DNA of 64,000 bases from a virus. The notes beneath the pieces were generated by a model that saw only the letters and a list, made by a program, of their open reading frames with translations, was not told the DNA's origin and searched no databases. Below, one piece after another: positions 7,117 to 63,611 of the stretch; position 1 is the first letter of the stretch, and each line of letters starts with the position of its first letter. The stretch is from the IMG/VR virus record IMGVR_UViG_3300045988_131275, positions 96,001 through 160,000 of that record; one strand, given 5' to 3'. The translations under genes were made by a program, and so were the position numbers.

Positions 7117-7139
7117 TTGAATCGTCCTCCTATACTTTA

Positions 7140-7394: not shown

Positions 7395-7426
7395 ATTTTC
7401 TCCTTTGAAATGCCAAATTCATTATA

Positions 7427-8166: not shown

Positions 8167-8201
8167 TTTGTGTCCTCCATATTTTAATTTTTATCATGAT
8201 G

Positions 8202-9423: not shown

Positions 9424-9457
9424 TTCATCACACCTCCTGAAAGCAAGATTTCATGTA

Positions 9458-9844: not shown

Positions 9845-9861
9845 ATTTTCACCTCTTGCAT

Positions 9862-10026
9862 TTACATTCTTTGATTAAGCAATTTCTGTGTACTCTCAAT
9901 TCTTTCAAGCAATTCATCGTTATATTCATCAGTGATACAGCCTTTTATTAATATTCCTTTAGCATATCCTAATTCTTTCATAATTGTAATCTGATTTTCT
10001 AAAATTTGTCTAAATGCTTGGTTCAT
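9862..10026 (-). CDS. hypothetical protein (54 aa)
   Basis: Own translation MNQAFRQILENQITIMKELGYAKGILIKGCITDEYNDELLERIESTQKLLNQRM. Confidence 0.45.
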   Translation of the reverse strand: MNQAFRQILENQITIMKELGYAKGILIKGCITDEYNDELLERIESTQKLLNQRM

Positions 10027-10049
10027 AAAATAGTCCTTCCTATATATTT

Positions 10050-10057
10050 AATATTGA
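10050..10057. repeat. target-site duplication AATATTGA (left copy)
   Basis: Identical 8-mer directly abuts both ends of the IS. Confidence 0.8.
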
Positions 10058-10366
10058 GTTACTGTTCAGAGGTATGCATAAGTCATTGTAAAAAATGACG
10101 AAATTTATTTTTTTATTTTGTGGATAACCATTCGCGGCAGGAAAAACTGTGTTTATAGTTTTTCCTGCTGTTCTTTTTGTTAAAAGTTATACACCAGATT
10201 CTAGTTTTGGGAACCCATTCTTGAAGTTTCAAGGTCTGCATGAATACTTTTTTTATTATAAAACAGCTATTTATCCACAGTCAGATTGACGAAAAGGCAC
10301 TTTCTGGTGATTCGCTTTTTTTCTATGTTTCTGTTATACTTTTTCTTAAGAAAGAGAGGTTCACTT

Positions 10367-10531
10367 ATGAATATTGATTTTAAAGAAGAACTTAGAAAAC
10401 GTGATGAACTTCTTGCCGGTTATCTCAAACAGATTGAAATCCAGGAGGAATTTATCCAGAAACAAAAAGAATTGATTGAATATCTGGAAGAGCATATCTC
10501 AAAGATTACAGACATTGTCAGTGGCGTTTGA
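10367..10531 (+). CDS. small coiled-coil protein inside the IS (54 aa)
   Basis: MNIDFKEELRKRDELLAGYLKQIEIQEEF...; RBS AGAGAGG upstream. Confidence 0.5.
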   Translation: MNIDFKEELRKRDELLAGYLKQIEIQEEFIQKQKELIEYLEEHISKITDIVSGV

Positions 10532-10556
10532 TTATAACTGTACTGGAGGAAAACAT

Positions 10557-12230
10557 ATGCCTGATGCGTATGATTACATCTCACTCATGTGTCGGCTGAA
10601 AGCCGCACAGACAAGAAATAAAGAACTGGAATCCGGTGAACACTATATTAAGCTGAAAGAACTCCATCAAAAGGAGTGCAGAGCCTATGAACGTAAGATT
10701 CAGGCGCTGCTAACGGAGATAGCGGATGCACATAAAGAAACCATCCGTGTCCGCAATTACTGGTTTCAGGTACTGGAGGATATGCTGCTGGAGTTTGAGG
10801 CAATGCAGAAAAAAGCTGACCAGAAGCTTCGGGAGATGGAGAAACGTGCTCTTCTTGCTGAGAGACAAAGAGATGATGCATTGGAGAAAGCAAAAGAATT
10901 CCGCCTTAAGTTCTATGAAACCGCCACCCAGCTGGAAGAAGAACAGGGAAAGAACCTGAAACTTCATGCACAGATCAACCGTGATTATGAAAATTCATCT
11001 ATTCCTTCTTCAAAAGCCATCCGGCGGAAAAAGATTGCAAACAGCAGGGAAAAAACAGGACGGAAACCCGGTGGACAGCCAGGACATAAAGGGCATGGCC
11101 GAAAAAAGCAGGAGCCTACACATCCGGTAATCCTCCTTCCGCCACCAGAAGAAGTGCTTGAAGACTGTGCTTTTAAAAAGACAGCAAGAACAATCATAAA
11201 ACAACTGGTAAGTATCCGTGTGGTCCTGGATGTAACAGAATACCATGCAGATGTTTATTATAACAGCCAGACCGGCGAACGTGCACACGCTGCATTTCCG
11301 GATGGTGTTATTGATGATGTGAATTATGATGGCAACATCCGGGCATTTTTGTTCCTTCTGAACAATGACTGCTGTACCTCTATTGATAAAAGCAGGAAGT
11401 TCCTGTCTGATCTGACGGATGGAAAACTGAATATTTCCAAAGGCATGATAAGTAAACTCAGCAGGGAGTTTGCTTTAAAAACAGAGCCCGAGCGCAAGGC
11501 AGCCTATGCGGACATGCTGCTTTCCCCTGTTATGCATACAGATTGTACAAGCGGCAGGGAAAACGGAAAAAGCTGTCAGATCTATGTCTGTGCCACACCA
11601 GACGGAAAAGCATTGTACTTCGCTCGTGAGAAAAAAGGACACGAGGGAGTAAAAGGGACTGTTACAGAGGATTATCAGGGGATCCTTGTCCATGACCATG
11701 ATATTACCTTTTATAATTATGGAGCAGATCACCAGGAATGCCTTGCCCATGTGCTGCGTTACCTGAAAGACAGCATGGATAATGAACCAGACCGCACCTG
11801 GAACAAAGAGATGCGTTCACTGGTACAGGAGATGATCCATTTCCGAAACGAATGCCAGCCATTTCAGGAACCGGATCCGGTAAAGGTATCTGAATTCGAA
11901 AAAAGATACCGTGAGATACTGGAAATAGCCAGGGCGGAATACGGAAATGTTCCGGCAAACAATTATTACAGAGACGGGTATAATTTATTCCTGAGAATGG
12001 AGAAATATATGCAGAACCATTTGCTGTTCCTGCATGATTCCCGAATACCTGCCACTAATAATGAAGCCGAAAGGCTTCTAAGAAACTATAAGCGGAAACA
12101 GGCGCAGGCTGTGACATTTAGGAGTTTCGAAAGTATCGATTATCTCTGCCAATGCATGAGCATGCTTGTTTTGGTGCGGCTAGAAGAACCAGCGAATATA
12201 TTTGACAGAGTATCCAGAATATTTGGATAA
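10557..12230 (+). CDS. IS66-family transposase
   Basis: GGAGG RBS before ATG at 10557; N-terminal coiled coil, basic GRKPGGQPGHKGHGRK stretch, C-terminal ...IPATNNEAERLLR..., typical of IS66 TnpC-type proteins. Confidence 0.8.
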   Translation: MPDAYDYISLMCRLKAAQTRNKELESGEHYIKLKELHQKECRAYERKIQALLTEIADAHKETIRVRNYWFQVLEDMLLEFEAMQKKADQKLREMEKRALLAERQRDDALEKAKEFRLKFYETATQLEEEQGKNLKLHAQINRDYENSSIPSSKAIRRKKIANSREKTGRKPGGQPGHKGHGRKKQEPTHPVILLPPPEEVLEDCAFKKTARTIIKQLVSIRVVLDVTEYHADVYYNSQTGERAHAAFPDGVIDDVNYDGNIRAFLFLLNNDCCTSIDKSRKFLSDLTDGKLNISKGMISKLSREFALKTEPERKAAYADMLLSPVMHTDCTSGRENGKSCQIYVCATPDGKALYFAREKKGHEGVKGTVTEDYQGILVHDHDITFYNYGADHQECLAHVLRYLKDSMDNEPDRTWNKEMRSLVQEMIHFRNECQPFQEPDPVKVSEFEKRYREILEIARAEYGNVPANNYYRDGYNLFLRMEKYMQNHLLFLHDSRIPATNNEAERLLRNYKRKQAQAVTFRSFESIDYLCQCMSMLVLVRLEEPANIFDRVSRIFG

Positions 12231-12305
12231 GAAAACCGATGGCTTTGACTGTTATTAGTCTACACCATCGGTTTTCTCATGTCCAGCTAACCTCTGAACA
12301 GTAAC

Positions 12306-20224: not shown

Positions 20225-20235
20225 TTTTCTTTTAA

Positions 20236-20308
20236 TGGAAACTATAGGACTTGAACCTATACCCTACAGTTCTAAGACCGTCACTCTCCCAAATTGAGCT
20301 AAGTTTCC
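20236..20308 (-). tRNA. tRNA gene with atypical 6-nt anticodon loop (CUUAGA; nominal anticodon UAG)
   Basis: Hand-folded: acceptor GGAAACU/AGUUUCC, U8, D arm GCUC/GAGU with GG, T arm AUAGG-UUCAAGU-CCUAU, 5-nt variable loop; anticodon stem ACGGU/ACUGU leaves only 6 loop nt. Confidence 0.6.
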
Positions 20309-20424
20309 AAAAAATGCGTACAAAAACAACGATGAAAGCCGACTTTCATTTGTGATATTTCTCTATATTTAGTTGTAATTAATTGGAATAATCGCAGAAA
20401 CGCTATGATTAATAAAGATTTTGC

Positions 20425-28569: not shown

Positions 28570-29880
28570 TTTCCTCTATCTTGAAACTATTCTTCTATCG
28601 TATCATTTATAAATACGTTCATAGTAAATCATGTAACTTACGCTACATTTATAACTATAGGCGTTAGAATAGCCTCTATCCCATATCGACTAATCGCATT
28701 TGGAAATGCTTTCTTCATAATCTGAAATGATCCATTTACATCGCTATTAATTAACAATCCAGAATTACTTTTGAATAAGCCTCTTTGAATACGTCTATTC
28801 TTATTATAATTCTCTTTAATTGGATTTTCTTCATCTAAGAAACTCGTTCCAGATGTATAACCTTCTTCTTGTTCAATATAATTAATTCCAACATTTTCAC
28901 ACTTATATTTAAGTTGTCGTAATAATATTTGGTATGGAATCATTATAAAATTCTGATTAGATTTTTTACTCATTATGGATTCTTGTTTCCATTTGTCATT
29001 TTTTCCAACAATTAATGTATCTATATTATTTTCAATACACCAATTTATAATATAATGACTTGTATTGTGCATATAATTCTTAATTCTTTGAAATCTCTTA
29101 AAAGTAATTATATCTAATTTCTTTGACCAATCTTTATTGTGCCGTATCTTCAATAATGATTTCTCTTTCGCAAGTCTCTTATTATAATACTGATTTATGC
29201 TTTTGACTCCCTTGCCGTTAATAATAATTGGATTTGATCCGATATTATTTGTCATAGTTACAAGATTATTTACGCCTAAATCAATAGCTACTATATTTTT
29301 TGATTCTTTATTTATATCGGGAATTTCTATTTCATAGACAATTTCCATTACATAACAAGAGCCTTTTGGAATAAATCTAACTTGAATTATTCTACCTAAA
29401 CAACGACATTTCCATTCATAATCATTTACTAAACGATTACTTATATGAATCGTCCCCTTTTCATAATTATAATGAAGTTGATTATTTGGAATCATCCAAA
29501 GGAATCTCCCATCTTTTTTAAGATATTTAGGTAATTTTGGTATACCTAGATATTTAGATGGATTCCTCTTCCAATCTTTAATTGCCACAAAATAAGACTT
29601 CCAATTTTTATCTAACAACCTCAATGTGCAATTTGCTGGTTGACTAAATGTAAGTTTATAATTTTCATGTGTTTTAAATTCTTTATTCATATCATAGTAA
29701 CTTATATATTTGTTATTATTTATAAATTCCTGTCGTAATACATAGTTTGCTTCGTTATATAAATTCTTGGAATGAAAACACTGTTGATCTATAACTTTAA
29801 ATTTAGGATGATTCCTTTTAATTATTATTTGTTCACATCTTTGTATTTTTATATTTTATGCACATCCTTTCGTGTAAAAT
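28570..29880 (-). mobile_element. IS200/IS605-type element remnant carrying tnpB only (ends not defined)
   Basis: tnpB ORF without adjacent tnpA; boundaries approximate. Confidence 0.45.
28638..29690 (-). CDS. tnpB: TnpB-like RuvC-fold nuclease (IS605 OrfB family), zinc-finger-less type
   Basis: RuvC motifs IAIDLGVNN (D), QEEGYTSGTS (E), NSDVNGSFQIMKKA (D). No CxxC pairs between E and D. The frame stays open 55 codons upstream (to 29855) with TnpB-like sequence but no start codon. Confidence 0.8.
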   Translation of the reverse strand: MNKEFKTHENYKLTFSQPANCTLRLLDKNWKSYFVAIKDWKRNPSKYLGIPKLPKYLKKDGRFLWMIPNNQLHYNYEKGTIHISNRLVNDYEWKCRCLGRIIQVRFIPKGSCYVMEIVYEIEIPDINKESKNIVAIDLGVNNLVTMTNNIGSNPIIINGKGVKSINQYYNKRLAKEKSLLKIRHNKDWSKKLDIITFKRFQRIKNYMHNTSHYIINWCIENNIDTLIVGKNDKWKQESIMSKKSNQNFIMIPYQILLRQLKYKCENVGINYIEQEEGYTSGTSFLDEENPIKENYNKNRRIQRGLFKSNSGLLINSDVNGSFQIMKKAFPNAISRYGIEAILTPIVINVA

Positions 29881-49543: not shown

Positions 49544-50323
49544 TTGCCTAATTATGTAAAGATTCCAAAAGAAATAATTTATGATACATCTCTTACGGAC
49601 AAACGAGTGATTATCTTTTCATATTTATGTGCAAGACGTTCACTTGATGATTCAGTGGCATTCTCAATTACTGAGCTTTGCCACTGGTCAAAACTCAAAC
49701 CAAACTATAGAGATGGAAAAATCAATCAAAAGTATTATAAAACATTACTTTTACTCTCCCACATGGATTATTTTACTGAATATCCTGACTTTGAATCACT
49801 TATATCTGAGCATAAAAATTCCATAGAGTATTTGAAAGTAGAATTGAATATAGAGAAATTTGATATACCAGATAAATTTGCAATAATTTATTTTGATGAA
49901 TTAGAAGCAATTTTGAATTATAAGGAAGAATTACAATACTCTGATATAGATTTATCTCGTATGTCATCAGCTTATATCTTATTGGTATTGTCTTATATCA
50001 GGCTAAATATGAATCGTTCAATTGACAAACCACTTTGCTGCTATCGTCAATATAAAACCATTTCTGATGAAATAGGAATATCTGAGAGATATGTAAGTCG
50101 TGCGGTAGAAATATTAGATGCATTAAACATTATTAAATATGTTCCGATGAAGAGAAGAAAATATACGAGTAATGGAAAAGAAAAATTTATTACTACATCA
50201 AAAGTATTTGCGGATTATAGACATTTCAAGAAATATGGAGATAATCACATTATTGATCAAAATTATGACTATAAAGATGAAATATCGAAACAGGTGGAGC
50301 TTTTAGAGAATATACACATATAA
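49544..50323 (+). CDS. putative replication organiser / winged-helix DNA-binding protein
   Basis: TTG start with GAGGTG RBS; YKTISDEIGISERYVSRAVEILDALNIIKY HTH-like (weak functional call). Confidence 0.55.
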   Translation: MPNYVKIPKEIIYDTSLTDKRVIIFSYLCARRSLDDSVAFSITELCHWSKLKPNYRDGKINQKYYKTLLLLSHMDYFTEYPDFESLISEHKNSIEYLKVELNIEKFDIPDKFAIIYFDELEAILNYKEELQYSDIDLSRMSSAYILLVLSYIRLNMNRSIDKPLCCYRQYKTISDEIGISERYVSRAVEILDALNIIKYVPMKRRKYTSNGKEKFITTSKVFADYRHFKKYGDNHIIDQNYDYKDEISKQVELLENIHI

Positions 50324-51595: not shown

Positions 51596-51819
51596 TGGTG
51601 TGAGCAGGTTGTCACATAAGCTATTGTCCATCAACGTGTCCTAACTATATTCCTGAGAATGTAACTCACTACTGCTCTATTTGCGGTAATGGAATTTACA
51701 ACGGAGAAGAATATATTAGGAACGATGACGACGATTATGCTCATTGGGAATGTATTGATTATAAGAAAGACTTAGCTGAATGGCTAGGTTATGAGATTAG
51801 AATTATGGAGGAAGATTAA
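51595..51819 (+). CDS. Cys-rich small protein with in-frame TGA at codon 3 (readthrough, Sec, error or pseudogene unresolved)
   Basis: ATG overlaps deaminase stop (TAATG). Own translation MV*AGCHISYCPSTCPNYIPENVTHYCSICGNGIYNGEEYIRNDDDDYAHWECIDYKKDLAEWLGYEIRIMEED. The stop is followed 1 nt later by the next ATG (TAAAATG). Confidence 0.4.
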
Positions 51820-51820
51820 A

Positions 51821-52687
51821 ATGTTAACTGGGAAAATAGGAAACGAAATCATAAATTGTTATGATGGAACACACTCAAAAGAACAGTTAAAAAAATGGAC
51901 TAAGAAGAAAATTATTTTATGTCCTGTATGTAATAGACCATATGAATATTGTCATGGTAAAGTTAAAACGCCATATTTTAGGCATATGGATAAAGAAAAA
52001 TGTGAAGATAAATATTCTGAATCAGAAACAGAAGAACATATTCAAGGTAAACGAGATTTATATGAATGGATCAAGAAACAAAACGGTGTTACAAATGCAA
52101 TATTAGAAGGATGGATACCAGAAACAAAACAACGTCCTGATATTATATTTGAGTATAATAATAAACGATATGTAATTGAATATCAGTGCTCTCCTATTGC
52201 TTCTGAATATTTTGAAAGACATGAATTATATCAAGCAGTTGGGATATGTGATATTTGGATTTGTGGAACTGAAAAGTATCTTGGATCAAATAAAAGAATA
52301 AATACATTAGAAAAAATGTCACATATTTATTATGATTTTAAAAATAAATTTTTATACGTTATTGATGATATTTCTGAGACGACATTTAAGGAAATAGGAA
52401 AACTTAATTCATGGAGAGGATATTTAAAAACTAAATATAAACAACAAAAATATTTTAAAAGGACGTTTCATGTAATGATGAATATATTTGATTATACTGT
52501 TGGATATAAAAATTATATTAAAATCAAAAACATTTCAAATAGTTATTATTGTTGCGGATCTCATTATCCATCTCCAACAGGTAGACCTTCGAATAAATAT
52601 CCGTATCCAGTAAGAGATTATGCATATTTAAGGAATTACTCTTATGCAACTTGTTATAAATTATCCAATATTAAATTAAAAATGTAA
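51821..52687 (+). CDS. CoiA-like protein
   Basis: CPVCNRPYEYCHGKVKTPYFRHMDKEKC...ETEEHIQGKRDLYEWI...RPDIIFEYNNKRYVIEYQCSPI resembles the competence protein CoiA family. Confidence 0.65.
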   Translation: MLTGKIGNEIINCYDGTHSKEQLKKWTKKKIILCPVCNRPYEYCHGKVKTPYFRHMDKEKCEDKYSESETEEHIQGKRDLYEWIKKQNGVTNAILEGWIPETKQRPDIIFEYNNKRYVIEYQCSPIASEYFERHELYQAVGICDIWICGTEKYLGSNKRINTLEKMSHIYYDFKNKFLYVIDDISETTFKEIGKLNSWRGYLKTKYKQQKYFKRTFHVMMNIFDYTVGYKNYIKIKNISNSYYCCGSHYPSPTGRPSNKYPYPVRDYAYLRNYSYATCYKLSNIKLKM

Positions 52688-52703
52688 TTGGAGGTATCAT
52701 AAT

Positions 52704-55472
52704 TTGAGTAAACATTTGACATCACAAAGATATGTATTTAAAATTCATTCTTCAAGACTTAGAAGAAAAAAATGGAATTTAAAATTGACACCAAATCAAG
52801 CAAGAGAAAATCAAGAGCTTATTGCTTTAAGCGAAAGTCAAATAATGAGATTTATTGATGAGATAAATAATATCACAGATACAGAACTTAAAATTTCAAA
52901 TATTAAATCTGAAATCAAGAAATTAAAATTTGAGAAAAATTTATCTATATCAAGACCTAAAATCAAGAAGTTATATAATGATTTAGATAAATATCAATTC
53001 AAAAAGGATTATGTGTGTGTTGTAATTGATAAGGTTAAAGATTTTGAATACATTTATAAACATGGCTTTAAAATCAACAATGTTACATATAGATGGTTAC
53101 TTGGAACTACTGGTGGAGTAAAAAACAATACTGTAGTATTTGTAAATGAAAAATTACTACCTGAATTAAAAAAACGTATAGATAACGGTCGAAATTTACA
53201 AAAAGAATTTGCTCCTGCAAAACTTGAAGCTTATATTGCTCTGGTATGCAGCTCTTCTATTCCTGTATCAATGCCAAATGGGATCGTTGTTGTTCATGAT
53301 TGTATTACAAAATTCAAATCAGATGTAATTGAATTAGATGATACTGGACTTGATCAACCAAGTATGAAATTTATTAAAAATAAAGATGTAGAGCTAAACG
53401 ATAGTGACGGATATGGACTTGCTATGCCATCTCTTATGGAACGTTGGGGATATGAAATCGGAGAAGATTTTTTATTACCTGGTTGTGTTATTAGAAATTC
53501 ATTTTGTAAAGGTGCTGTATTTCCTATTGATTTTCAGAAGTTTGCACAAGATCATGGTTTTACAGAAATAACAGATGTGTGGGGAAATACATATGACATT
53601 AATGAAATAGAACTCATTTTAACAGAGTCGATGCTAAAATTGTGGGACTCCTATTCTTCTCTTGAATCATATCTTGAAAATTGTGAAAAGAATCATTACA
53701 CATTTGCAATTACAAAAGCTTCGGAAGAAGAATTAGAAAATGTAAGAACAATGAATTACCAGTTTTTACAAAGTTATGATTTTACAGATGAACAAATTGA
53801 TGAATTAATCGCACCAACTGTAAATGAAATTAAAGAAATTTTAGATGATGATTATAGAAAAACAATATTATACACAAAAGGTATAGGACTTAATGAGAAA
53901 AATATTCAACATTTAGATAGTTCATTTGCAACAGCATTGATGATTGAACCTGAAATGGCTAATGATCCATTTATCAAATCCCAGATTCACTCCATGATTA
54001 GAAAGCGTATTGATGAAGCTAAAGTTGGGGTTTTAAAAGTTCCTGCAAATTATTCCTTAGTATCAGGAGATCCGTATTCTCTATGTCAGTCCATGTTTGG
54101 AATGAAAGTTACTGGACTATTAAAAGCTGGACAAGTCTATTCTAAATATTGGATTGATAAAGGTGTTGATAAAATTGTAAGTTTTCGTGCGCCAATGACC
54201 TCGCATAATAATATCAGGCTTCTTGAAGTTGTACATAATGAAACAATGGATGAATTTTATCAATATATGACAACTCCTACTATTTTTAATAGTTGGGATA
54301 CATGTGCGGAAGCGATGAATGGTTTTGATAAAGACGGAGATTGTGTAATTAATACTTCATTTGATCTATTAGTAAAAAATACTAAACGATTACCTGCTAT
54401 TGTATGTGTGCAAAGAAAAGCTCCAAAATGTATTCCTACAGATGATGATATTATGAGATCAAATATTAATAGTTTTGGAAATGCCGTAGGTGGAGTAACA
54501 AATAAAATTACATCAATGTTTGAAGTTAAATCGAATTTCGCACAAGGAACAAGAGAATATAATTTGCTCGATTATAGAATCAAATGTGGTCAGTTATACC
54601 AGCAAAATGCGATTGATAAAACTAAAGGGATTGAGGCGAAACCAATGCCTGATAATTGGTATAACTGGATTTCAAATAAACTTACAAAAGCAAAAGACTC
54701 TCACCAGAAAAAAGAATTTTGGATCAACCGAAAAATTATCGCAGATAAAAAGCCTTATTTTATGCAATATATTTATCCATCAGAACGCATAGAATTAAAT
54801 AATTATCGTAAGAAAAATAATGAAAAGTGTCTTATGAGATTTAGAATTTCTCTTGATGAATTAATGTACAAAGAGAATAAATCAAGAGAAGAAAATAAAT
54901 TTATTAAGTGTTATTATGATCGAATGCCACTCGGTATGGGTAAATGTACAATTAATAAAATTTGTTGGAGAATTGAAGAAAAGTTTGATAACCTTGTTTA
55001 CTCTTCTAATGAAAATTTTGATTATTCTATTATGAAGAGTAATGTAACATATTCGGATGCGGTGTATAAGAAAATTAAAAAAATATATGAAACTTATAGA
55101 AAAGAAATATCTAGTTACATGCAATATGCTAAATCCGAAAGGCTTAAATCAGATGAACGTCAAATTCAAAAATATATACTAAAAGAACAATTTAAAGAAA
55201 AATGCCTATTAGAGTGTCCTAATGAAGATGAGTTATGTAATATTGTTTTAGATTTATGTTATTCAAAATCTAAATATAGTAAACAATTTGCATGGGATAT
55301 TTGTGGTGAAGTATTTATACAGAATTTATTAAGACGTAAGAATTATAAAATCTCATATCCAACACTTGATGATAATGGAAATATTGAGTATTTAGGCATG
55401 AAATTTTCTATGAAAGAAACTGAAATTAAAGTAAATGTAGATTTGGAGGACAATGAATGCCAGTTGTATTAA
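52704..55472 (+). CDS. YonO-like single-subunit two-barrel RNA polymerase (RdRP-like)
   Basis: KIVSFRAPMTSHNNIRLLEVV ... AMNGFDKDGDCVINT: DxDGD metal-binding loop in the context seen in YonO/QDE-1-type polymerases; TTG start with GGAGG RBS. Confidence 0.65.
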   Translation: MSKHLTSQRYVFKIHSSRLRRKKWNLKLTPNQARENQELIALSESQIMRFIDEINNITDTELKISNIKSEIKKLKFEKNLSISRPKIKKLYNDLDKYQFKKDYVCVVIDKVKDFEYIYKHGFKINNVTYRWLLGTTGGVKNNTVVFVNEKLLPELKKRIDNGRNLQKEFAPAKLEAYIALVCSSSIPVSMPNGIVVVHDCITKFKSDVIELDDTGLDQPSMKFIKNKDVELNDSDGYGLAMPSLMERWGYEIGEDFLLPGCVIRNSFCKGAVFPIDFQKFAQDHGFTEITDVWGNTYDINEIELILTESMLKLWDSYSSLESYLENCEKNHYTFAITKASEEELENVRTMNYQFLQSYDFTDEQIDELIAPTVNEIKEILDDDYRKTILYTKGIGLNEKNIQHLDSSFATALMIEPEMANDPFIKSQIHSMIRKRIDEAKVGVLKVPANYSLVSGDPYSLCQSMFGMKVTGLLKAGQVYSKYWIDKGVDKIVSFRAPMTSHNNIRLLEVVHNETMDEFYQYMTTPTIFNSWDTCAEAMNGFDKDGDCVINTSFDLLVKNTKRLPAIVCVQRKAPKCIPTDDDIMRSNINSFGNAVGGVTNKITSMFEVKSNFAQGTREYNLLDYRIKCGQLYQQNAIDKTKGIEAKPMPDNWYNWISNKLTKAKDSHQKKEFWINRKIIADKKPYFMQYIYPSERIELNNYRKKNNEKCLMRFRISLDELMYKENKSREENKFIKCYYDRMPLGMGKCTINKICWRIEEKFDNLVYSSNENFDYSIMKSNVTYSDAVYKKIKKIYETYRKEISSYMQYAKSERLKSDERQIQKYILKEQFKEKCLLECPNEDELCNIVLDLCYSKSKYSKQFAWDICGEVFIQNLLRRKNYKISYPTLDDNGNIEYLGMKFSMKETEIKVNVDLEDNECQLY

Positions 55473-56209
55473 ATGAAATAAAACAAGCAGAAACAATATT
55501 AGAGAAAGGGGAAGTTGGTAATAAACCAACTTCCACCTTATTCTTACTATCTAAATATTATCGTCAAAAATTAAAATTATCCGAGAATAAAACTTCTGAA
55601 AAACTTAATGAGTTTATGGATAACAATTATAAAAATTATAATCCTGTATTATGGGAAGATATAATTGAAGATATTTCTCGAAAAGGCAAAAAATATGAAT
55701 TAAGGAATATTGAGCATATTGGAATTACTCAATCTGAATTAGATACTATTGAATCTACAAAAACGAAGAATCATAAAAAATTACTATTTACAATGTTATG
55801 TTTTGCAAAATTATACAATATTATATCTATAAATAACAATAATTGGATCAATTCAGATATAAAAGAAATATTTAAAACTGCAAGAGTGATCGTTAAACAT
55901 AGAGATGATAAATTCTTATTGCTAAATGATTTGGAATCGAATGGTTATATTTCTTTTTCTAGTAAGAATGATAATCTTAATATGAAAATTAATTTTATTG
56001 ATAATGTTAATGATTCAATATTATATATTACTGATTTTAGAGAATTAGGGTATGAATATCTTAATTATACAAAAGATGGTAATTTTACAAGATGTAAAAT
56101 TTGTAACAGATTAATAAGAAAAACAAGTAAAAATATTCAGTATTGTGCAGAATGTAAAGAAGATAAACGGCTTGAGACAAAAAGAAAATGGTGGAGTAAT
56201 AAAGAATAA
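55457..56209 (+). CDS. hypothetical protein with C-terminal zinc ribbon
   Basis: CKICNR...CAECK; 16-nt overlap with the polymerase gene. Confidence 0.55.
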   Translation: MPVVLNEIKQAETILEKGEVGNKPTSTLFLLSKYYRQKLKLSENKTSEKLNEFMDNNYKNYNPVLWEDIIEDISRKGKKYELRNIEHIGITQSELDTIESTKTKNHKKLLFTMLCFAKLYNIISINNNNWINSDIKEIFKTARVIVKHRDDKFLLLNDLESNGYISFSSKNDNLNMKINFIDNVNDSILYITDFRELGYEYLNYTKDGNFTRCKICNRLIRKTSKNIQYCAECKEDKRLETKRKWWSNKE

Positions 56210-56391
56210 TTTGTAAAAATAATTTATGCACTAGACTTTTTTAAATGTCCGCAAACCCAGTATTTACAAGGGTTTCCGACACTATTGCCAATTTTCTTAT
56301 TATGTAATAGATATATACGTGGATACATTGAAAATACAATGAAAGACGAAATATTTTAATAAAATAATCAATCAAAAAGGAGAATCAGTAC

Positions 56392-57003
56392 ATGATTTTA
56401 AAAGAATCATATCGCTATCAGAACTTTCTTACAAATCTTATTAGCAGCGCACAGACATATCTTGGAAATGTATCATTCGTCATGACAACAACTCAAAAGC
56501 ATATGAAAAGCAAAGCTAATCCAGAAGCATCTGATGATGATTTGGAAGTTCCAAAATCTTATAATGTAGATTTTACGCCAACTCAACTGGTGGATTTTCT
56601 TATGGATGCAATTCAAGAAAAACAAAAGTTGTCTGATGCTATCACAGAAGCTAAGAAAAATACTGAAATTGATTTAGATTCTTCTTATGCCATGAATAAA
56701 ACAAAACAAAGTCTTGCTAAAGTTTTCAAGACAATGGCTGGCAGAAAAGCTACTGATACTGAAAAGCAAGGTCGAGATTATAGATTCAATGTCAATCAAG
56801 AGCAGGTTGCTTATACATACACTATCAAAGAAGTTACTCAACTGGATTATGATAGAAATGTAGTTAAAGCACTTGCAAAGAAATTAGCAAAAGAAACAGA
56901 TGAAGTTTCAACTAAACTTGATCAGCTTGAGCTTACTACTCTTGTTAATCATGAACCAAAGTATGATATGAATGATACATTAGAGGATATTGTGGTGAAG
57001 TAA
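56392..57003 (+). CDS. hypothetical protein
   Basis: AAGGAG RBS. Confidence 0.6.
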   Translation: MILKESYRYQNFLTNLISSAQTYLGNVSFVMTTTQKHMKSKANPEASDDDLEVPKSYNVDFTPTQLVDFLMDAIQEKQKLSDAITEAKKNTEIDLDSSYAMNKTKQSLAKVFKTMAGRKATDTEKQGRDYRFNVNQEQVAYTYTIKEVTQLDYDRNVVKALAKKLAKETDEVSTKLDQLELTTLVNHEPKYDMNDTLEDIVVK

Positions 57004-57545
57004 AATTCACCACTACTCTTCTATTCGGATATTCACAAGAGACTAAGATTGATTTATGATGGTCAATCGGTTCAGATGCAGATGAACTGTGATGCTGCGA
57101 GGTAGGATGATAATACCAGAATTATCATAATTAAAATCTAAAAAAAGAATATGTCATACATATTATTATAGATATTATTGGGTAAGTATAATTTATACTT
57201 AACATTGGAAAAATTCAAGATGATTCGTTAATCAACATTACGTTTCATTAATGCGAAAATGCAAGATTTTATTATTTCGGTATTTCAACAATTTGTAAAT
57301 TTGATAAAACAATATACGTTTCGCTAATATTAATTCTTAAAAGAATATATCGGGCGAAAAGCCTAAACATATAAAGGAACGAATTATTCAAATTCGATTG
57401 AAACATTTGTGTTTCAGATGAAAATTAAAAGATTTTGTGCAATTTTTGTACAGATTTTTAGCAAATTGGTTGAGATTATGAAGAAATCTTAGTCTGTTAT
57501 GAATATTTGAATAAAAATACAGTTATAATTAGTTTGGAGACTAAT

Positions 57546-57554
57546 TGGTATAAT
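57546..57554 (+). promoter_or_regulatory. extended -10 promoter TGgTATAAT upstream of tRNA
   Basis: About 75 nt before the tRNA 5' end. Confidence 0.4.
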
Positions 57555-57628
57555 AATTGGCGGTTGCACTATTATTTCCCCTTTCTTTAAAATGGTGTGA
57601 TCGCTGATTTTCTGTTTATAAAAAATAA

Positions 57629-57702
57629 TGCAGAGTGGAGCAGTCTGGAAGCTCGTCTGGCTCATACCCAGAAGGTCATAGGTTCAAATCCTATCTCTGC
57701 TA
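57629..57702 (+). tRNA. tRNA with CAU anticodon (Met or Ile2 type)
   Basis: Hand-folded: U8, D arm GAGC/GCUC, anticodon arm UCUGG-CUCAUAC-CCAGA, T arm AUAGG-UUCAAAU-CCUAU, acceptor GCAGAG/CUCUGC with U1:U72 mismatch; no encoded CCA. Confidence 0.75.
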
Positions 57703-57962: not shown

Positions 57963-59194
57963 ATGCCATCAGTACTTATTTTTACGATACAAATGCTCTG
58001 CTATTATTACAGAAAGATGTATTAAAAGAAAAATTTTATATTAGTTCTACATCACTTCAAGAACTAGAACACATCAAAGTCTCACGTAACAAAGAAGAAC
58101 AAGTTAAATATGCAGCACGTAAAATTCTACATATACTTGATGAAAACGAATCTTCATACGGTGTTATCGTTACCGATTCTAAGATTATAGATATTATCAA
58201 TCAACATGGATTGGAAAATACACCAGATAATCAAATATGTGCGTGTGCTTCGACAATTGAAGATGTCATTTTTATTACAAATGACATTGCATGTAAATCA
58301 ATTGCAAGACACATCTTTGGATTAAGAACAGAAACAGTTAAAGAAGAAGAAAAAGATTTATATACTGGTTTTATTGAAACGTCATTATCTGAAACAGAAA
58401 TGGCTTATTTTTATGAACATTTACAAGAAAATATTTATGATTTATTAGACAATCAATATCTTGTATTAAAAGATAATGATAATAAAATTGTGGATATTAT
58501 GGTTTGGCGTGATGAAATGTATCAGAATGTTAAATTCCCTACAATTCGTTCAAACTATTTTGGAAATGTAAAACCTTTAAATGGTGATGTTTTTCAACAA
58601 ATGGCTTTAAATAGTTTTAGTAATAATCAAATTACTATGATTAAAGGCGCAGCTGGTACAGGAAAATCATATTTAGCTGTTGGATATTTAATGTGGTTAT
58701 TAGAGAAACGAAAAATCGAAAAAATTATTGTATTTTGTAATACTGTTGCTACTGCTAATTCTGCAAAGCTTGGGTATTACCCAGGGACAAAGGATGAGAA
58801 GTTGTTAGATTCATCAATCGGTAACATGTTATCTGCTAAACTTGGGGACAGTTTTGGACTTGAAGAAATGATGGCAAAAGGCAGAATCCAACTCTTGCCA
58901 ATGTCTGACATTAGAGGTTTTGATACTAATGGAATGTGTGCAGGTATTTATATTACAGAAGCGCAAAACATGGATATATCATTAATGAAACTTGCCTTAC
59001 AAAGAATTGGAGAAGACTCAATTTGTATCATAGATGGTGATTACAACGCACAAGTTGATTTATCTCAATATGCAGGTTCTAATAATGGTATGCGTAGAAT
59101 GTCAGAAGTTTTTAGAGGTCAAGACTTCTACGGAGAAGTAGAATTGCAAAATATTTATAGAAGCAAAATTGCGAAAATCGCTGAAAATATGTGA
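57963..59194 (+). CDS. phoH: PIN-domain PhoH-like ATPase (frame change needed near 57979-57983)
   Basis: Walker A MIKGAAGTGKS. The upstream frame reads ...YFYDTNALLLLQKDVL... (PIN-like). The ATG at 57963 with its RBS is in another frame; adding one T to the T5 run joins them. Confidence 0.7.
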
Positions 59195-59229: not shown

Positions 59230-59859
59230 ATGAATAAAAGAAATATGGAATTATCGGATAAAGAATATGATGAACTTGCTGAAAAATTAGATGCGGAGCA
59301 GGTCATTCTTGAAGATACGGATTTGATTAATAATCAATTTGAAAATCTTCTAAAGCATAGAATTATTCTTATTAACGACATTATTAGTAACCTTACAATT
59401 GATAAAATTGTTATGCCACTGTTACAGATGGATAATGACGGAACAGGTGAGAAAATTACTATTTATCTGAATAGTAATGGCGGATCTACATTTGACGGGT
59501 TGGTCTTATGTAATATTATTGAAAGATTAAAAACACCAACGGAAGTTATTGTGCTTGGATATGCATATTCTATGGGAAGTATTATTCTCATGTCTGGTAA
59601 AAACAATCCAAACGTAACTAGAAAATGTTATCCATTTAGTACAGCTCTTATTCATGGTGGTTCTGCTTATATTGGTGGAACTTCCAGTCAAGTAAAAGAT
59701 TATTTTAAATTCAATGAAAAATTTGAGAAACGTATTGCAGATTTTATTGTATCACATACAAATCTCTCAGAAGATGACTATGCCGCTATCGAGAGATATG
59801 AAGCATATATGGATTCTGATGAAATGTTAGAAAAAGGTTTAGTAGACGAAATTATCTAG
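59230..59859 (+). CDS. ClpP-family serine protease
   Basis: ITIYLNSNGGSTFDGLVLCNII...VLGYAYSMGSIILMSG matches the ClpP core pattern. Confidence 0.75.
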   Translation: MNKRNMELSDKEYDELAEKLDAEQVILEDTDLINNQFENLLKHRIILINDIISNLTIDKIVMPLLQMDNDGTGEKITIYLNSNGGSTFDGLVLCNIIERLKTPTEVIVLGYAYSMGSIILMSGKNNPNVTRKCYPFSTALIHGGSAYIGGTSSQVKDYFKFNEKFEKRIADFIVSHTNLSEDDYAAIERYEAYMDSDEMLEKGLVDEII

Positions 59860-59922: not shown

Positions 59923-60123
59923 ATGATCAAGATAAACGAAACACCAGAAAAATTAAATCCACGCAAAATTAATATCCAGCTTAAAAATATTTCTTTAAAA
60001 GATCTTCACTTAATCGACACTGATACAGGTGAAGATGTGACTCAGGAAGTAATTGATACTCTTCCAGAAGGAACAGAAACAATTGATTTTAAAATCACTA
60101 AAGATATTCCAGAAGAAGAATAA
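59923..60123 (+). CDS. hypothetical protein
   Basis: AAGGAG RBS. Confidence 0.55.
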   Translation: MIKINETPEKLNPRKINIQLKNISLKDLHLIDTDTGEDVTQEVIDTLPEGTETIDFKITKDIPEEE

Positions 60124-60128
60124 GTTGG

Positions 60129-61346
60129 GTGGTGGATGATATAAAGTCATATAAAAGATTAGACGGTGAAACACCAGAAGAATTAATTTATAGAGTATGT
60201 TCCGATAAGGATTCTATCGGATCTTGGAATGATGTTGCTGTAATTTTGAATACATTATTAAATCAAGATTATGGAGAATCTACATACCGTAAAAAATTTC
60301 AAGCATTTAATAAAATGTTAACTGCAAATAGAAAGAAATTTTATGATTCAAGTAAACAGTTAGATGAATTGAATAAGAAAATTAAAGAATATCGTCAAGA
60401 ACAGATTAAACTTCAAACTCTTAATATTGAAAGAAATCGTTTAGATAGAAGTGAATCTCGACAAGAACTGTATTATCAATATGTTGGAAATGTTATTAAT
60501 ACACTACCATTACCAGAATTTAAAGATATTATAAGTTATGAAGACAATGGTTCTCGTGAATATATTCTAAATCTCAGCGACTTGCATTACGGTGCTTCAT
60601 TCGTAAGCGAAAATAATATTTATTCACCAGAAATCACAAGAGAAAGATTATTCTATCTTACATCTTATATGATTGATTTTATTAAATCACATAAGCTACA
60701 TAAATTACATGTTTTATGTACAGGTGATGTATTACAAGGACTTATTCATTTAACTGATCTAAAAATAAACGATAGTACAGTCGTAAAATCATGTGTGGAA
60801 ATTTGTAGATTGATTGCACAAATGTTAAATACATTATCTGCTTATGTACAGATTGAATATTATCATACACCATCAGCTAATCATACACAGATACGTGCAT
60901 TAGGTGCGAAAGCAAATGAGTTAATGGATGAAGATATGGAATATCTGATTGGAAATTATATTAAAGATTTATGTGCCAATAACAATCGTATTATTGTTCA
61001 TCTTGCAGAAGAAGGAAAACAATATGTAGCATTTAGTATCAATGAGTATAATATTGTTGCCATGCATGGACACCAGATTAAAAACATTGAATCAGCAATT
61101 AAAGATATTTCTATGATGCGTAGAGAATTTGTAGATATTTTAATTTTAGGACATTATCACGCAGGAAAACAAATAACTGTTGGTGAAGGATGTTGTGCAG
61201 ATTGTGAAGTACTAATTAATCCATCATTTGTAGGAAGTGATCCATATTCTGATTCACTGATGAAAGGTAGCAAGGCTGCTGTAAATATATATGGTATACA
61301 CAAAATCTACGGACATGATGAAACGCACAAAGTAATTTTAAATTAG
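60129..61346 (+). CDS. calcineurin-like metallophosphoesterase
   Basis: LSDLHYG, CTGDVLQG, SANH, MHGHQ, LGHYH motif series; GTG start. Confidence 0.7.
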   Translation: MVDDIKSYKRLDGETPEELIYRVCSDKDSIGSWNDVAVILNTLLNQDYGESTYRKKFQAFNKMLTANRKKFYDSSKQLDELNKKIKEYRQEQIKLQTLNIERNRLDRSESRQELYYQYVGNVINTLPLPEFKDIISYEDNGSREYILNLSDLHYGASFVSENNIYSPEITRERLFYLTSYMIDFIKSHKLHKLHVLCTGDVLQGLIHLTDLKINDSTVVKSCVEICRLIAQMLNTLSAYVQIEYYHTPSANHTQIRALGAKANELMDEDMEYLIGNYIKDLCANNNRIIVHLAEEGKQYVAFSINEYNIVAMHGHQIKNIESAIKDISMMRREFVDILILGHYHAGKQITVGEGCCADCEVLINPSFVGSDPYSDSLMKGSKAAVNIYGIHKIYGHDETHKVILN

Positions 61347-61463: not shown

Positions 61464-61739
61464 ATGACAAAAATTGAATTTGTAGATGCAGTCGCAAAAG
61501 AAACAGAATGGACAAAGAAAGATTCTGAGGAAGCTATTAATGCTGTGGTTAAAGTAATCACCAATGCTTTAGTAGCAGGTGAGAAACTTTCTATTGTTGG
61601 ATTTGGAACATTTGAAGTTGTTGAAAGAGCAGCAAGAGAAGGGCGCAATCCTCAAACTGGCGAATCGCTTATGATCAAAGCGTGTAAAACAGCAAAGTTT
61701 AAACCAGGTAAAGCCTTCAAGGAACTTATCAATGCGTAA
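61464..61739 (+). CDS. hup: HU-family DNA-binding protein
   Basis: MTKIEFVDAVAKET...AINAVVKVITNALVAGEKLSIVGFGTFEVVERAAREGRNPQTGESLMIKA...KFKPGKAFKE: full-length HU signature. Confidence 0.9.
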   Translation: MTKIEFVDAVAKETEWTKKDSEEAINAVVKVITNALVAGEKLSIVGFGTFEVVERAAREGRNPQTGESLMIKACKTAKFKPGKAFKELINA

Positions 61740-62570: not shown

Positions 62571-63611
62571 GTGAGATTATTGGATGGTAAAATTGCAGAT
62601 AGATCTGTTGAAATAACAGATGAAGAATGGCAAACAGTAAATGAATTTAATAGAGAAATGGTTGAGGATTACCTTGATAATCAAGCTGACCTTTCTGTGA
62701 AAACTTTGCCAGCATATAAATCTGGATTAAGGATTTTCTTTACTTGGGTTAGGGACAATCTCAAGGACAAGAATTTTACAGATATTAAAAAGAAAGAATT
62801 TCAAAAATATCTTAATTGGTTAACCAAAAGAGGTTTTTCTGATTCTGGTATTAAATTTAAAAAATCTGCTGTAAGTACATTTTGCAATTATGTAATGATG
62901 ATGTATGAGGAAGAATATCCTACATTTCGTAATTTCACAATTGGGCTTAAAGTAGTACAGACAGGATATGTTCATGAAAAAGTTCCACTTACGCCAGATG
63001 AATATATTAATTTATGTCAAGAACTTGAAAAACGTGAAGAATGGCAAATGTTAGCATATCTTACATTTTCTTACAGTACAGGATGTAGACGTGCAGAAGC
63101 TAGACAATTACTCAAGGAAGTCATTGATTATTCTGCAAATGAAAAGAAAATCAAAGTTCTGGATGAAGATGGACATGAATATGAAACTATTTCAAAGCAG
63201 TATTTGACTCACACTATTCGTTGCAAAGGTGCATCTCTTGTGGGTAAACCACGTAAACTTAAATTTGGTGATGATGCAATGCAATGGTTAAAGAAATGGA
63301 TTGAAGTGCGTGGTGAAGATGACTGTCCTTATATGTTTGTAATTAAATCTAAAGATGGAAAAGAAGTTAGACAAGTGAGTGAAAGCACTTTTAATAATTG
63401 GTGTCAAGGATTATTTACACAAATTGTTGGACGTAGGGTGCATCCTCACCTATTCAGGGAGTCAAGAGCTACAAACCTTGTTGTGTTTCAGCATAAAGCA
63501 CCAGAGGTAGCTCAGAAATTACTAGGACATAATCAAGTCACTACAACTTTAGATCATTATATTATTCGTAATGATGAAAATGATGAGTCTGATGAAGCAT
63601 TTACTGATTGA
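62571..63611 (+). CDS. tyrosine recombinase / phage integrase
   Basis: GCRRAEAR (Arg I), HPHLFRESRAT (HxxR), LLGH, LDHYI (Tyr); GTG/TTG start uncertain. Confidence 0.85.
   Translation: MRLLDGKIADRSVEITDEEWQTVNEFNREMVEDYLDNQADLSVKTLPAYKSGLRIFFTWVRDNLKDKNFTDIKKKEFQKYLNWLTKRGFSDSGIKFKKSAVSTFCNYVMMMYEEEYPTFRNFTIGLKVVQTGYVHEKVPLTPDEYINLCQELEKREEWQMLAYLTFSYSTGCRRAEARQLLKEVIDYSANEKKIKVLDEDGHEYETISKQYLTHTIRCKGASLVGKPRKLKFGDDAMQWLKKWIEVRGEDDCPYMFVIKSKDGKEVRQVSESTFNNWCQGLFTQIVGRRVHPHLFRESRATNLVVFQHKAPEVAQKLLGHNQVTTTLDHYIIRNDENDESDEAFTD

Follow-up and report, generated by a model that had tools for sequence, protein, structure and literature searches.

The locus described here raises two questions, namely whether the 922-amino-acid (aa) protein that it encodes is an RNA polymerase of the YonO type, and whether such a polymerase works alone. 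The locus lies in a 64,000-nucleotide (nt) stretch of viral DNA, positions 96,001 to 160,000 of the IMG/VR record IMGVR_UViG_3300045988_131275, which is hereafter referred to as the window. The original prediction, which had been made from the letters of the window, described the protein as a YonO-like single-subunit two-barrel RNA polymerase. As detailed below, the protein is almost certainly a YonO-family two-barrel RNA polymerase, and the whole locus is, with good confidence, best explained as encoding the catalytic subunit of a YonO-class DNA-dependent RNA polymerase together with a zinc-ribbon partner protein. The term "single-subunit" is probably wrong for the clade to which the window belongs, in which the YonO-type ribbon is found on a separate, obligatorily linked protein (i.e., the split clade).

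The DNA-dependent RNA polymerase YonO of phage SPbeta is processive; phage production requires it, and its 3D>3N mutant is inactive (PMC5467207, Forrest et al. 2017). Upon deletion of yonO, 37 late genes are silent, which apparently belong to one operon starting upstream of yonK, and both the promoter sequence of YonO and its need for host or phage factors were left open in 2017 (PMC5467207).

The polymerase gene was found exactly as claimed, as an uninterrupted plus-strand open reading frame (ORF) for 922 aa (Table 1). The two peptides that had been quoted from it, KIVSFRAPMTSHNNIRLLEVV and AMNGFDKDGDCVINT, correspond to aa 490-510 and aa 537-551, respectively, and their spacing of "about 35" residues is approximate but fair, as 26 residues separate the peptides and 47 lie from R495 to D542. 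BLASTP aligned the protein with YonO at E=2e-35, with 171 of 641 positions identical (27%) and with FDKDGD of the window protein opposite FDNDGD of YonO; a tblastn search gave 26.7% identity to SPBc2 yonO (E=7e-29). Judged by these sequence comparisons, the similarity to YonO is far above chance level. The tblastn search of phage genomes matched 39 records, including 24 Bacillus SPbeta-group records, and identities were 42% for Clostridium phage c-st, 39-40% for six Enterocloster phages and 29% for Bacillus phage BUCT082. Public data also contained a cluster of 99%-identical proteins with 161 member sequences and thousands of further polymerase homologues (>3700).

When the window polymerase itself was used as the query, Pfam returned no family, PHROGs only families of unknown function, and NCBIfam and the PDB sequences nothing. 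A homologue search with a six-sequence profile recovered only the window's own clade (72-99% identity) and no added diversity. Against the PDB, the profile of six phage homologues matched maize RDR2 best; this match was non-significant and consisted of three collinear segments, which were an N-terminal piece, SDGxG...R....KG and DxDGD. The homology of the polymerase is visible only via tblastn or BLASTP to YonO, via its relatives and via structure. A point against the assignment is that the Pfam RNA-dependent RNA polymerase (RdRP) family, PF05183, did not match the window polymerase even at E<=10; YonO itself is likewise unmatched. An 82%-identical relative (P0002) matched PF05183 over aa 112-556 with 45.4 bits (gathering cut-off, 23.8), and the TR-TP1 homologue did so with 69 bits.

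The AlphaFold2 model of the polymerase, for which 65 sequences from two clades (73-83% and 27-31% identity) were supplied, had a predicted local distance difference test score (pLDDT) of 86.9 and a predicted template modelling score (pTM) of 0.81. When this model was compared with the PDB by Foldseek, RDR2 and QDE-1 made up all of the top 21 matches (E=1e-18 to 1e-12, probability 1.00), and their alignments of 719-1037 columns covered nearly the whole chain; the best E-value was 1e-18 for RDR2 and about 1e-15 for QDE-1. The runners-up were the Thermus phage RNA polymerases gp62 and gp64 (E about 1e-5), followed by weak matches to beta-prime/Rpb1. No structure of YonO was among the Foldseek PDB matches. 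Beyond the barrels, homology to beta-prime/Rpb1 or beta/Rpb2 was seen only as weak Foldseek matches (E>=0.11; template modelling (TM) score <=0.09), and no Pfam RNA_pol family was matched. The profile and structure comparisons that had been proposed as a check thus recovered a two-barrel polymerase fold, QDE-1 included, and the identification as a YonO-like two-barrel polymerase stands on BLAST homology to YonO, on PF05183 in relatives and on the RDR2/QDE-1 fold matches.

Further analyses located the residues expected of such a fold. In the beta-like barrel, D235 lies in DSDGYG (nt 53400-53417), and R264 and K269-G270 lie in IRNSFCKG (nt 53490-53513); D235, G236, R264, K269 and G270 are conserved in three of the alignments (A1, A2 and A4), and the motifs are collinear with "SDGIG...IRYGGYKG" of maize RDR2 in the profile alignment. 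The beta-prime-like barrel contains R495-A-P497 (nt 54186-54194) and is placed opposite "NPCLH...DLDGD" of RDR2, and R495, P497, D542, D544 and D546 are conserved across all alignments. An aspartate triad, an R-x-P motif (R446/P448 of Rpb1) and an aspartate with two basic residues (D837, K979 and K987 of Rpb2) are common to two-barrel polymerases (PMC2919709, Ruprich-Robert and Thuriaux). The window polymerase has all of these residues, where the equivalence of D235, R264 and K269 is by alignment and one of the two basic residues is arginine, as in RDR2. According to the model, both double-psi beta-barrels are contained in one polypeptide with an RdRP-like overall fold. The N-terminal approximately 450 residues, which had been called unassigned, can now be assigned, because the beta-like barrel sits there (about aa 190-310) and the region lies within the RdRP-family match. 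The polymerase is another member of an already known family.

Given that the nearest solved folds, RDR2 and QDE-1, are RNA-dependent enzymes, the window enzyme might be thought to be an RNA-dependent RNA polymerase that copies or amplifies phage or host RNAs. Relatives match the Pfam family named "RdRP", the homologues of PMBT24, Perkons and TR-TP1 are annotated as "RNA-dependent RNA polymerase", and QDE-1 has been crystallised with RNA and DNA templates (PDB entry titles). We nevertheless consider an RNA-copying function highly improbable: YonO, which is a direct homologue and the only bacterial or phage member that has been characterised, is a DNA-dependent enzyme by which late genes are transcribed (PMC5467207), the element is a tailed phage with double-stranded DNA and SPbeta-like synteny, and the database names most likely echo the name of the Pfam family.

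Directly downstream of the polymerase gene is the ORF for a 250-aa protein (Table 1), whose presence was confirmed. The original prediction had guessed that its product could be a partner factor, and this guess is strengthened by conserved linkage and by a ribbon match to YonO. In all of the 80 viral loci with polymerases that share 49-99% identity with that of the window, the partner homologue starts between -19 and +3 nt from the polymerase stop, and upstream of each of three partner homologues with only 28-30% identity there is directly an overlapping C-terminus of a split-type polymerase. The partner gene is also found directly 3' of the polymerase gene in c-st, PMBT24, CB473P3, BUCT082 and TR-TP1. 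Linkage of other neighbours is looser: of the 80 loci, 26 have the CoiA-like gene and 2 the 203-aa ORF. The Shine-Dalgarno sequence of the partner gene lies inside the polymerase gene, which suggests translational coupling. A polymerase-partner fusion produced by programmed frameshifting was ruled out, as the frame offsets differ (-1 in the window, +1 in PMBT24), the partner genes that were checked have starts of their own, and the one in the window has its own Shine-Dalgarno sequence.

The partner family comprised 1166 representative clusters at E<=1e-3, and the best 150 of these were all stand-alone proteins of 125-364 aa. C213, C216, C230 and C233 are kept in all 58 aligned family members. 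The AlphaFold2 model of the partner (pLDDT 97.2; pTM 0.90) consists of a helical part with four helices (aa 1-99), a winged-helix-like part (about aa 100-195) with a helix-helix-helix-hairpin unit at aa 104-178, the zinc ribbon, and a long basic C-terminal helix. The ribbon and basic helix matched aa 781-834 of YonO (BLASTP E=6e-4; hhalign probability 91.3%, E=9.7e-7). As a control, a hidden Markov model (HMM) of the ribbon only was run over every ORF of the window and of eight phage loci, with the database size set as in the PDB search. YonO (E=7.7e-6) and Perkons (3.4e-5) were recovered, while the best unrelated ORF reached 1.8 and the best PDB zinc finger 0.09. A long hhalign alignment of the partner profile with Perkons outside the ribbon was of low quality and was disregarded. 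It should be noted that the depositors of c-st had labelled its partner homologue "YonO-homolog (C-ter only)".

A six-phage alignment of the polymerases revealed two architectures, which differ in whether the ribbon is fused to the polymerase or borne by another protein. The fused one is that of YonO (839 aa) and Perkons ORF215 (857 aa), where a CxxC...CxxC ribbon directly follows a conserved W..G....N helix and there is no partner gene. The enzymes of the window, BUCT082 and TR-TP1 have at their ends a cysteine-free tail (P..D.NG.IE.LG..F.MKE) with three predicted beta strands, after which the partner follows; the tail is also present in three further split-type enzymes (L089, L090 and L091). 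Thus, the C-terminal CxxC...CxxC ribbon of YonO in the strict sense is absent from the polymerase chain of the window and is found on the 250-aa partner. Since the two genes overlap, one in-frame deletion from about codon 880 of the polymerase to about codon 205 of the partner could give the YonO architecture. From these sequence comparisons, it is likely that the ribbon and basic helix are, in function, parts of the polymerase and that the window clade has a heterodimeric enzyme; YonO would then represent a fused form and the window clade a two-part form. That the partner is a physical subunit of the polymerase appears reasonably probable on the same grounds.

Table 1. Features of the polymerase locus in the window and intron-like inserts in related loci (positions are those of the window unless a locus label is given).
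Feature	Position	Strand	Basis and remarks
CoiA-like nuclease gene	51791..52687	+	Pfam CoiA_nuc, E=4.4e-29; inside swapped segment; facultative companion
Polymerase Shine-Dalgarno GGAGG	52690..52694	+	9 nt 5' of TTG; 3 nt past stop of CoiA-like gene; sequence reading
YonO-family two-barrel RNA polymerase gene (almost certain)	52704..55472	+	922 aa; TTG start; uninterrupted ORF
Predicted beta-like double-psi beta-barrel	53271..53633 (about aa 190-310; boundaries approximate)	+	Conserved residues and model strands
Predicted beta-prime-like double-psi beta-barrel	54021..54413 (about aa 440-570; boundaries approximate)	+	Conserved residues and model strands
Catalytic metal-binding loop D542-K-D544-G-D546 (DxDGD)	54327..54341 (aa 542-546)	+	Opposite YonO FDNDGD
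Conserved I637-D638-K639-T-K641 motif	54612..54626	+	D638 and K641 conserved in alignments
Polymerase C-terminal beta tail SYPTLDDNGNIEYLGMKFSMKE	55353..55418 (aa 884-905)	+	Alignment A1; model strands E882-907
Partner Shine-Dalgarno GGAGG	55445..55449	+	Within last polymerase codons; 7 nt before ATG; sequence reading
Partner protein, 250 aa	55457..56209	+	ORF; ATG start; overlaps polymerase stop by 16 nt
Zinc ribbon C213/C216/C230/C233 and basic helix aa 231-249	56090..56203	+	Matches YonO C-terminus (aa about 781-834)
Conserved non-coding block CCAATTTTCTTATTATGTAATAGATATAT	56288..56316	+	79 nt past partner stop; about 75 nt before ORF 56392; motif search
PhoH-like ATPase	58211-59194		
ClpP-related protease	59230-59859		
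YonJ orthologue, metallophosphoesterase-like	60129..61346	+	BLASTP vs SPbeta YonJ, 36% identity, E=3e-77; both 405 aa
HU-type DNA-binding protein, YonN-like	61464..61739	+	Pfam Bac_DNA_binding, E=3.8e-33
Tyrosine recombinase	62571-63611		
Intron-like insert	L034:6633-7000
Intron-like inserts	L080:6633-7529 and 7812-8933
Intron-like inserts	L031/L035, about 6915-8030
Intron-like insert	L002 (c-st):7672-7988
Intron-like inserts	L007 (CB473P3):2345-2777 and 3060-about 3520
Intron-like insert	L092 (Goe11):4480-5769

Several observations weigh against a two-part enzyme with a partner that acts in transcription. The beta tail of the split-type polymerases fills the position that the ribbon takes in YonO and Perkons, so that the picture of a piece cut off from the polymerase may be too simple, and the first 189 residues of the partner have no counterpart in YonO. 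The partner of TR-TP1 matches the family profile in its N-terminal part only, and the ribbon may therefore not be universal. Zinc ribbons are short and can be prone to convergence. In a Foldseek search of the PDB, no solved structure matched the partner significantly (best E=0.11), and its winged-helix likeness is thus non-significant. No conserved YonO-type promoter motif was demonstrated in searches of the window and related loci. Finally, SPbeta, with a fused enzyme, and BUCT082, with a split enzyme and a partner, have yonN-yonK intergenic regions that are 94% identical while their polymerases are only 25% identical; with such a shared late promoter region, and if the extra domains of the partner set promoter specificity, it is not obvious how YonO could do without them.

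These observations bear on the idea that the polymerase works alone, as is assumed of YonO, with the partner as an independent regulator that binds DNA, or as a protein of the replication type, that is merely encoded in the same operon, and with a ribbon likeness that results from convergence or shuffling and is functionally meaningless. YonO on its own, as one polypeptide, is indeed able to elongate RNA in vitro (PMC5467207), the split-type polymerases have a C-terminal beta tail of their own, and the late promoter region is common to SPbeta and BUCT082 despite the absence of a partner in the former and its presence in the latter. The weak structural neighbours of the partner include the winged-helix domains of ORC2, Fur, TubR and plasmid RepA, as well as replication initiators, replisome organisers and other helix-turn-helix proteins, and a faint match to PriX (E=0.032) was non-significant. 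We consider this idea unlikely, given that overlapping adjacency is kept in 80 of 80 loci, where the polymerases range from 49 to 99% identity, and with partners of as little as 28% identity (against 26 of 80 for the CoiA-like gene and 2 of 80 for the 203-aa ORF), that the ribbon match to YonO and Perkons was specific against the controls, and that polymerase and partner are replaced jointly, as one cassette, in MT835469.

Library searches added little to the description of the partner. Pfam, NCBIfam and PDB sequence searches returned nothing significant, and in comparisons with known initiation factors (sigma-70, TFIIB/TFB and TFE) no significant sequence or fold match was found. In the viral structure library BFVD, the sole significant match was the partner's own family, whose automatically assigned names there are contradictory ("RNA polymerase subunit", "HscB", "RecR" and "Trm112p-like"). 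The partner gene also contains a perfect 10-bp hairpin, GGAAGTTGGT-AATAA-ACCAACTTCC (nt 55510-55534), about 50 nt into the coding sequence, which the terminator scan flagged on both strands.

With the two-part enzyme as the preferred reading, the following mechanism can be proposed. The CoiA-like gene stops 17 nt ahead of the polymerase TTG, and the terminator scan found no terminator-like site on the plus strand in 51791-52704, between the CoiA-like gene and the polymerase gene; this, together with the overlap of the partner gene, suggests that the genes for a dCMP deaminase, the CoiA-like nuclease, the polymerase and the partner are read as one operon. By analogy to the biochemistry and genetics of YonO, host RNA polymerase would transcribe this early operon, and the phage polymerase would then transcribe the phage late genes without host RNA polymerase; the targets would probably be the yonJ-like gene and structural genes past the end of the window. 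As the gene structure suggests, synthesis of the partner would be tied to that of the polymerase by translational coupling, and the partner would bind the polymerase via the zinc ribbon and basic helix, i.e., via the element that is covalently attached as the C-terminus of YonO. The clade enzyme would thus be a heterodimer, and YonO a deletion-fusion derivative that kept the ribbon only. More speculatively, the winged-helix-like and helical domains of the partner may contact DNA and aid promoter recognition or opening, comparable to sigma, TFIIB and TFE. We put forward only tentatively, by analogy, that the partner is an initiation or promoter factor, with its ribbon as an anchor on the catalytic subunit and its winged-helix and helical domains on the promoter.

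The promoter searches yielded one lead. Scans for generic sigma-70 promoters and for terminators gave no information (77 sites vs. 103 expected), the aligned regions upstream of yonJ contained only the ribosome-binding site, k-mer counts were at the shuffle level, and the motif from a second promoter search turned out to be a coding stretch. The SPbeta yonN-yonK intergenic region, which in SPbeta and BUCT082 contains the mapped YonO start, has no similarity to the window; the published transcription start of SPbeta is genome position 2225998. A conserved non-coding block downstream of the partner gene (Table 1) had a log-likelihood of 144.8, compared to 64 +/- 3 for shuffles, and occurs in the window as a single high-scoring copy (20.4 vs. 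13.3 bits). The block (TTTTCTTATTATGTA...) has a hairpin-like AAACC...GGGTTTCC just ahead of it and is kept in the clade with at least 66% identical polymerases. As a general YonO-type promoter it was rejected, since a matrix trained on the window clade had its top match well placed in only 2 of 23 independent loci; the matrix had no match in the SPbeta yonN-yonK gap, MT835469 or Perkons. We therefore regard the block as a clade-specific candidate regulatory or promoter element and as a lead only, which shared ancestry alone may explain.

The context of the polymerase gene is consistent with a late-gene role. The late operon that YonO transcribes in SPbeta has yonJ near its beginning (PMC5467207), and the YonJ orthologue of the window is thus likely a target gene of the polymerase. 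An HU gene is found 3' of the polymerase gene in SPbeta, c-st, PMBT24, BUCT082, Perkons and TR-TP1, and in the window the yonO-type polymerase gene is likewise linked to an HU gene and a yonJ-type gene. The gene order differs from that of SPbeta, as a tRNA gene, the PhoH-like gene and the ClpP-like gene are inserted and the HU gene comes after yonJ. No similarity to YonK was detectable in the 66-aa ORF upstream of the yonJ-like gene (59923-60123). The 1-44 kb part on the minus strand encodes a helicase, a C5-methyltransferase, an integrase, transposases and anti-repressors, i.e., early and accessory genes. Related viral contigs with 83-99% identical polymerases are 92-169 kb long, apart from one 35-kb fragment. 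The hint of the original prediction at an SPbeta-like setting is supported by the YonJ orthologue, the HU/YonN-like gene, the C5-methyltransferase and the large related contigs. By homology and context, we regard the polymerase as the enzyme that transcribes the late genes of a large SPbeta-like phage. Close relatives occur in genomes of gut Lachnospiraceae, namely Lachnoclostridium (96%), Acetatifactor, Roseburia and Frisingicoccus, and also in Clostridium sp. Marseille-P7770 (82%).

Some neighbours are of a replication or nucleotide-metabolism type, namely a DnaD/replication-initiator-like ORF (49544-50323) and the dCMP deaminase gene, and together with the faint PriX match and the replisome-organiser-like structural neighbours of the partner they could be taken to mean that polymerase and partner serve DNA replication instead of late transcription, for example with the former making RNA primers in the manner of a primase and the latter as its DNA-binding loader. 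Such a role is extremely improbable: deletion of yonO in SPbeta silences late genes specifically (PMC5467207), the conserved downstream neighbours are yonK/yonJ late-operon genes and the HU gene, and the PriX and replisome-organiser matches are all non-significant.

The polymerase module is separated from the yonJ-like gene by the PhoH-like and ClpP-related genes, and the tyrosine recombinase gene lies just past the yonJ-like and HU genes. The ClpP-related protein is possibly a head-maturation protease. In one compact relative (L089), the order is polymerase, partner, small ORF, YonJ, recombinase and HU, without the PhoH- and ClpP-like insertions.

In relatives, the polymerase gene is interrupted at two fixed sites by inserts of 317-1300 nt, and the window equivalents of these sites are 54335|54336 and 54617|54618 (Table 1). 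The first site, D544|G545 in the catalytic loop, is occupied in L034, L080, c-st and Enterocloster phage CB473P3, and the second, D638|K639 in the ID|K motif, is occupied in L031, L032, L035, L080 and CB473P3. In Bacillus phage Goe11, yonO is split after D625, at a position that aligns with the second site. The same sites are used in clostridial, Enterocloster and Bacillus lineages, and the window gene is without an insert. The larger inserts encode homing endonucleases of the HNH_3, NUMOD3 or GIY-YIG type. The 368-nt insert of L034 has no ORF; the end of its 5' exon, CAAGGAU, can pair with GUCCUUG of the intron in a P1-like manner, including a U.G pair, and the insert ends with G. The Rfam group I and group II intron models matched none of the inserts. 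Because of these P1 and omega-G features and the homing-endonuclease ORFs, the inserts are probably group I introns located at the two most conserved motifs. The polymerase genes that are annotated as two or three fragments in c-st, the Enterocloster phages and Goe11 are most likely intron-interrupted, not broken.

Phages that are otherwise nearly identical have exchanged their polymerase cassettes. On both sides of 51813-57681, the window and MT835469 share 77-95% identity, and the segment itself has been replaced (L008 (MT835469.1) 7105-12278). In the window, this cassette comprises the genes for the CoiA-like nuclease, the 922-aa polymerase, the partner and the 203-aa ORF; in MT835469, it comprises a 78-aa Cys-rich ORF and an unrelated-looking 956-aa YonO-like gene (24% identity, with DFDSD), without a partner. 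A second swap was found between SPbeta (L001:5605-8124), which has a fused YonO, and BUCT082 (L004:1716-6870), which has a CoiA-like gene, a split polymerase and a partner. The CoiA-like nuclease of the window shares 58% identity (E=7e-60) with the N-terminal part of the ORF that precedes the polymerase gene in BUCT082, compared to 29% identity between the polymerases, which suggests a mobile passenger. The CoiA-like protein may be a free-standing nuclease of the homing type, which accompanies the cassette or drives its exchange.

Large or small structured RNAs and tRNAs were observed just 3' of the polymerase modules of relatives. These were ROOL (L031:9729-10326; 331 bits), GOLLD together with tRNAs (L008:10987-11477; 173 bits), DUF3800-VIII RNA in SPbeta (L001:10006-10071) and BUCT082 (L004:8632-8697), and RAGATH-18 in c-st (L002:11965-12025). 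The DUF3800-VIII RNA of SPbeta and BUCT082 is located about 260 nt 5' of yonK, near the start of the YonO-dependent transcript with an "unannotated ncRNA". None of the four RNAs (i.e., ROOL, GOLLD, DUF3800-VIII and RAGATH-18) was found in the window, where the corresponding stretch contains the 203-aa ORF (56392-57003) and a tRNA-Met gene (57629-57702).

Elsewhere in the window, the C5-cytosine DNA methyltransferase to which the original prediction referred (4786-6339, minus strand) matched PF00145 in three stretches and has a zinc-ribbon-like insert near its N-terminus. An IS66-family transposase gene (10476-12230, plus strand; Pfam E=7e-21) runs on the opposite strand within an island of raised GC content (41% vs. 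about 30% around it) and is thus an insertion sequence (IS) within the phage early region; a second transposase-like ORF is at 28638-29690 on the minus strand. A tRNA-like gene (20235-20309, minus strand) scored 56 bits with the Rfam tRNA model; ARAGORN assigned no anticodon to it ("ta" at position 36), and its anticodon loop may be unusual.

The significance of these findings lies in the position of YonO-type enzymes, which among the known relatives of cellular RNA polymerases are the smallest and are discussed as models of the single-chain ancestor of the latter. In a very populous gut-phage clade, polymerase and partner are encoded by two tightly coupled genes, and the partner has in common with YonO a zinc ribbon and basic helix. 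The partner is thus a concrete candidate for the helper factor that has been missing from the YonO field. If it is indeed an initiation factor, it would be the first one described for the RdRP-like branch of two-barrel polymerases, with an unrelated fold and as an analogue of sigma, TFIIB and TFE; it would address the question of 2017 whether YonO recognises promoters alone or with further factors, would show how a minimal two-barrel polymerase finds its promoters, and would provide a compact orthogonal transcription system. That YonO-like enzymes exist in firmicute and Clostridium phages is already known: the depositors of c-st noted the YonO homology of its gene, and c-st was listed as encoding a YonO-like enzyme (Iyer et al. 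2021). The obligatory ribbon-bearing partner and the fused/split relation to YonO were not found in the open-access literature that was searched. Public annotations of the pair are inconsistent and range from "RNA-dependent RNA polymerase" and "hypothetical protein" to two to five ORFs (PMBT24, Perkons, TR-TP1, CB473P3, c-st and Goe11); the first two of these labels are probably misleading.

P74-26 gp62 and P23-45 gp64 of Thermus phages (8F5M and 8F72) are two-barrel phage RNA polymerases that gave the next-best fold matches after RDR2 and QDE-1 and are far more distant (TM 0.23-0.36). Neither gp66 of crAss-like phages nor the non-virion RNA polymerase of AR9, which likewise have a two-barrel active site, was among the Foldseek matches listed. 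The AR9 RNA polymerase is a multisubunit enzyme of the beta/beta-prime-like kind with a separate promoter-specificity subunit. TFIIB/TFB and TFE/TFIIE-alpha resemble the partner in that a zinc ribbon and a winged-helix-like fold are likewise combined in a protein that goes with a two-barrel polymerase, which is a functional analogy only. The partner has another domain order, with the ribbon at the C-terminus, a chain of a Pol II pre-initiation complex was matched only at a Foldseek probability of 0.11, and the profile search of the PDB gave RPA12 at E=0.16; membership of the partner among TFIIB/TFE-type factors is thus not supported.

QDE-1 (2J7N) and plant RDR2 (7W82 and 7ROZ) are the best fold matches of the polymerase (TM about 0.45), with collinear SDGxG, R....KG and DxDGD motifs and both barrels in one chain. 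They differ from it in that sequence identity is 11-14% and that they copy RNA in silencing, whereas the phage enzyme is expected to be DNA-dependent like YonO. QDE-1/RDR2-type enzymes are not known to have a ribbon-bearing partner protein. The closest named phage relative is c-st (CST179/CST178 plus CST177), which is 42% identical over the full length and has the same split architecture and a downstream HU gene; CST177 is the partner homologue (30% identity, E=4e-31) and overlaps the end of the polymerase gene. Unlike the window gene, which is intact, the polymerase gene of c-st is split within DxDGD, between the second D and G, by an insert of about 317 nt and appears in the annotation as two ORFs; the c-st locus is littered with IS elements.

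Compared to YonO of SPbeta, which has 839 aa and a fused ribbon, the window enzyme has 922 aa and a cysteine-free beta tail, and its partner adds about 190 residues, helical and winged-helix-like, that are missing from YonO. The host also differs, being Bacillus for YonO and a gut Lachnospiraceae/Clostridium-like bacterium for the window. Common to both are the catalytic DxDGD, the R-x-P motif, the residues of the second barrel, the HU/YonN-like and YonJ neighbours and the setting in large temperate-type phages of Bacillota, and relatives of both lineages have the intron site ID|(K/F).

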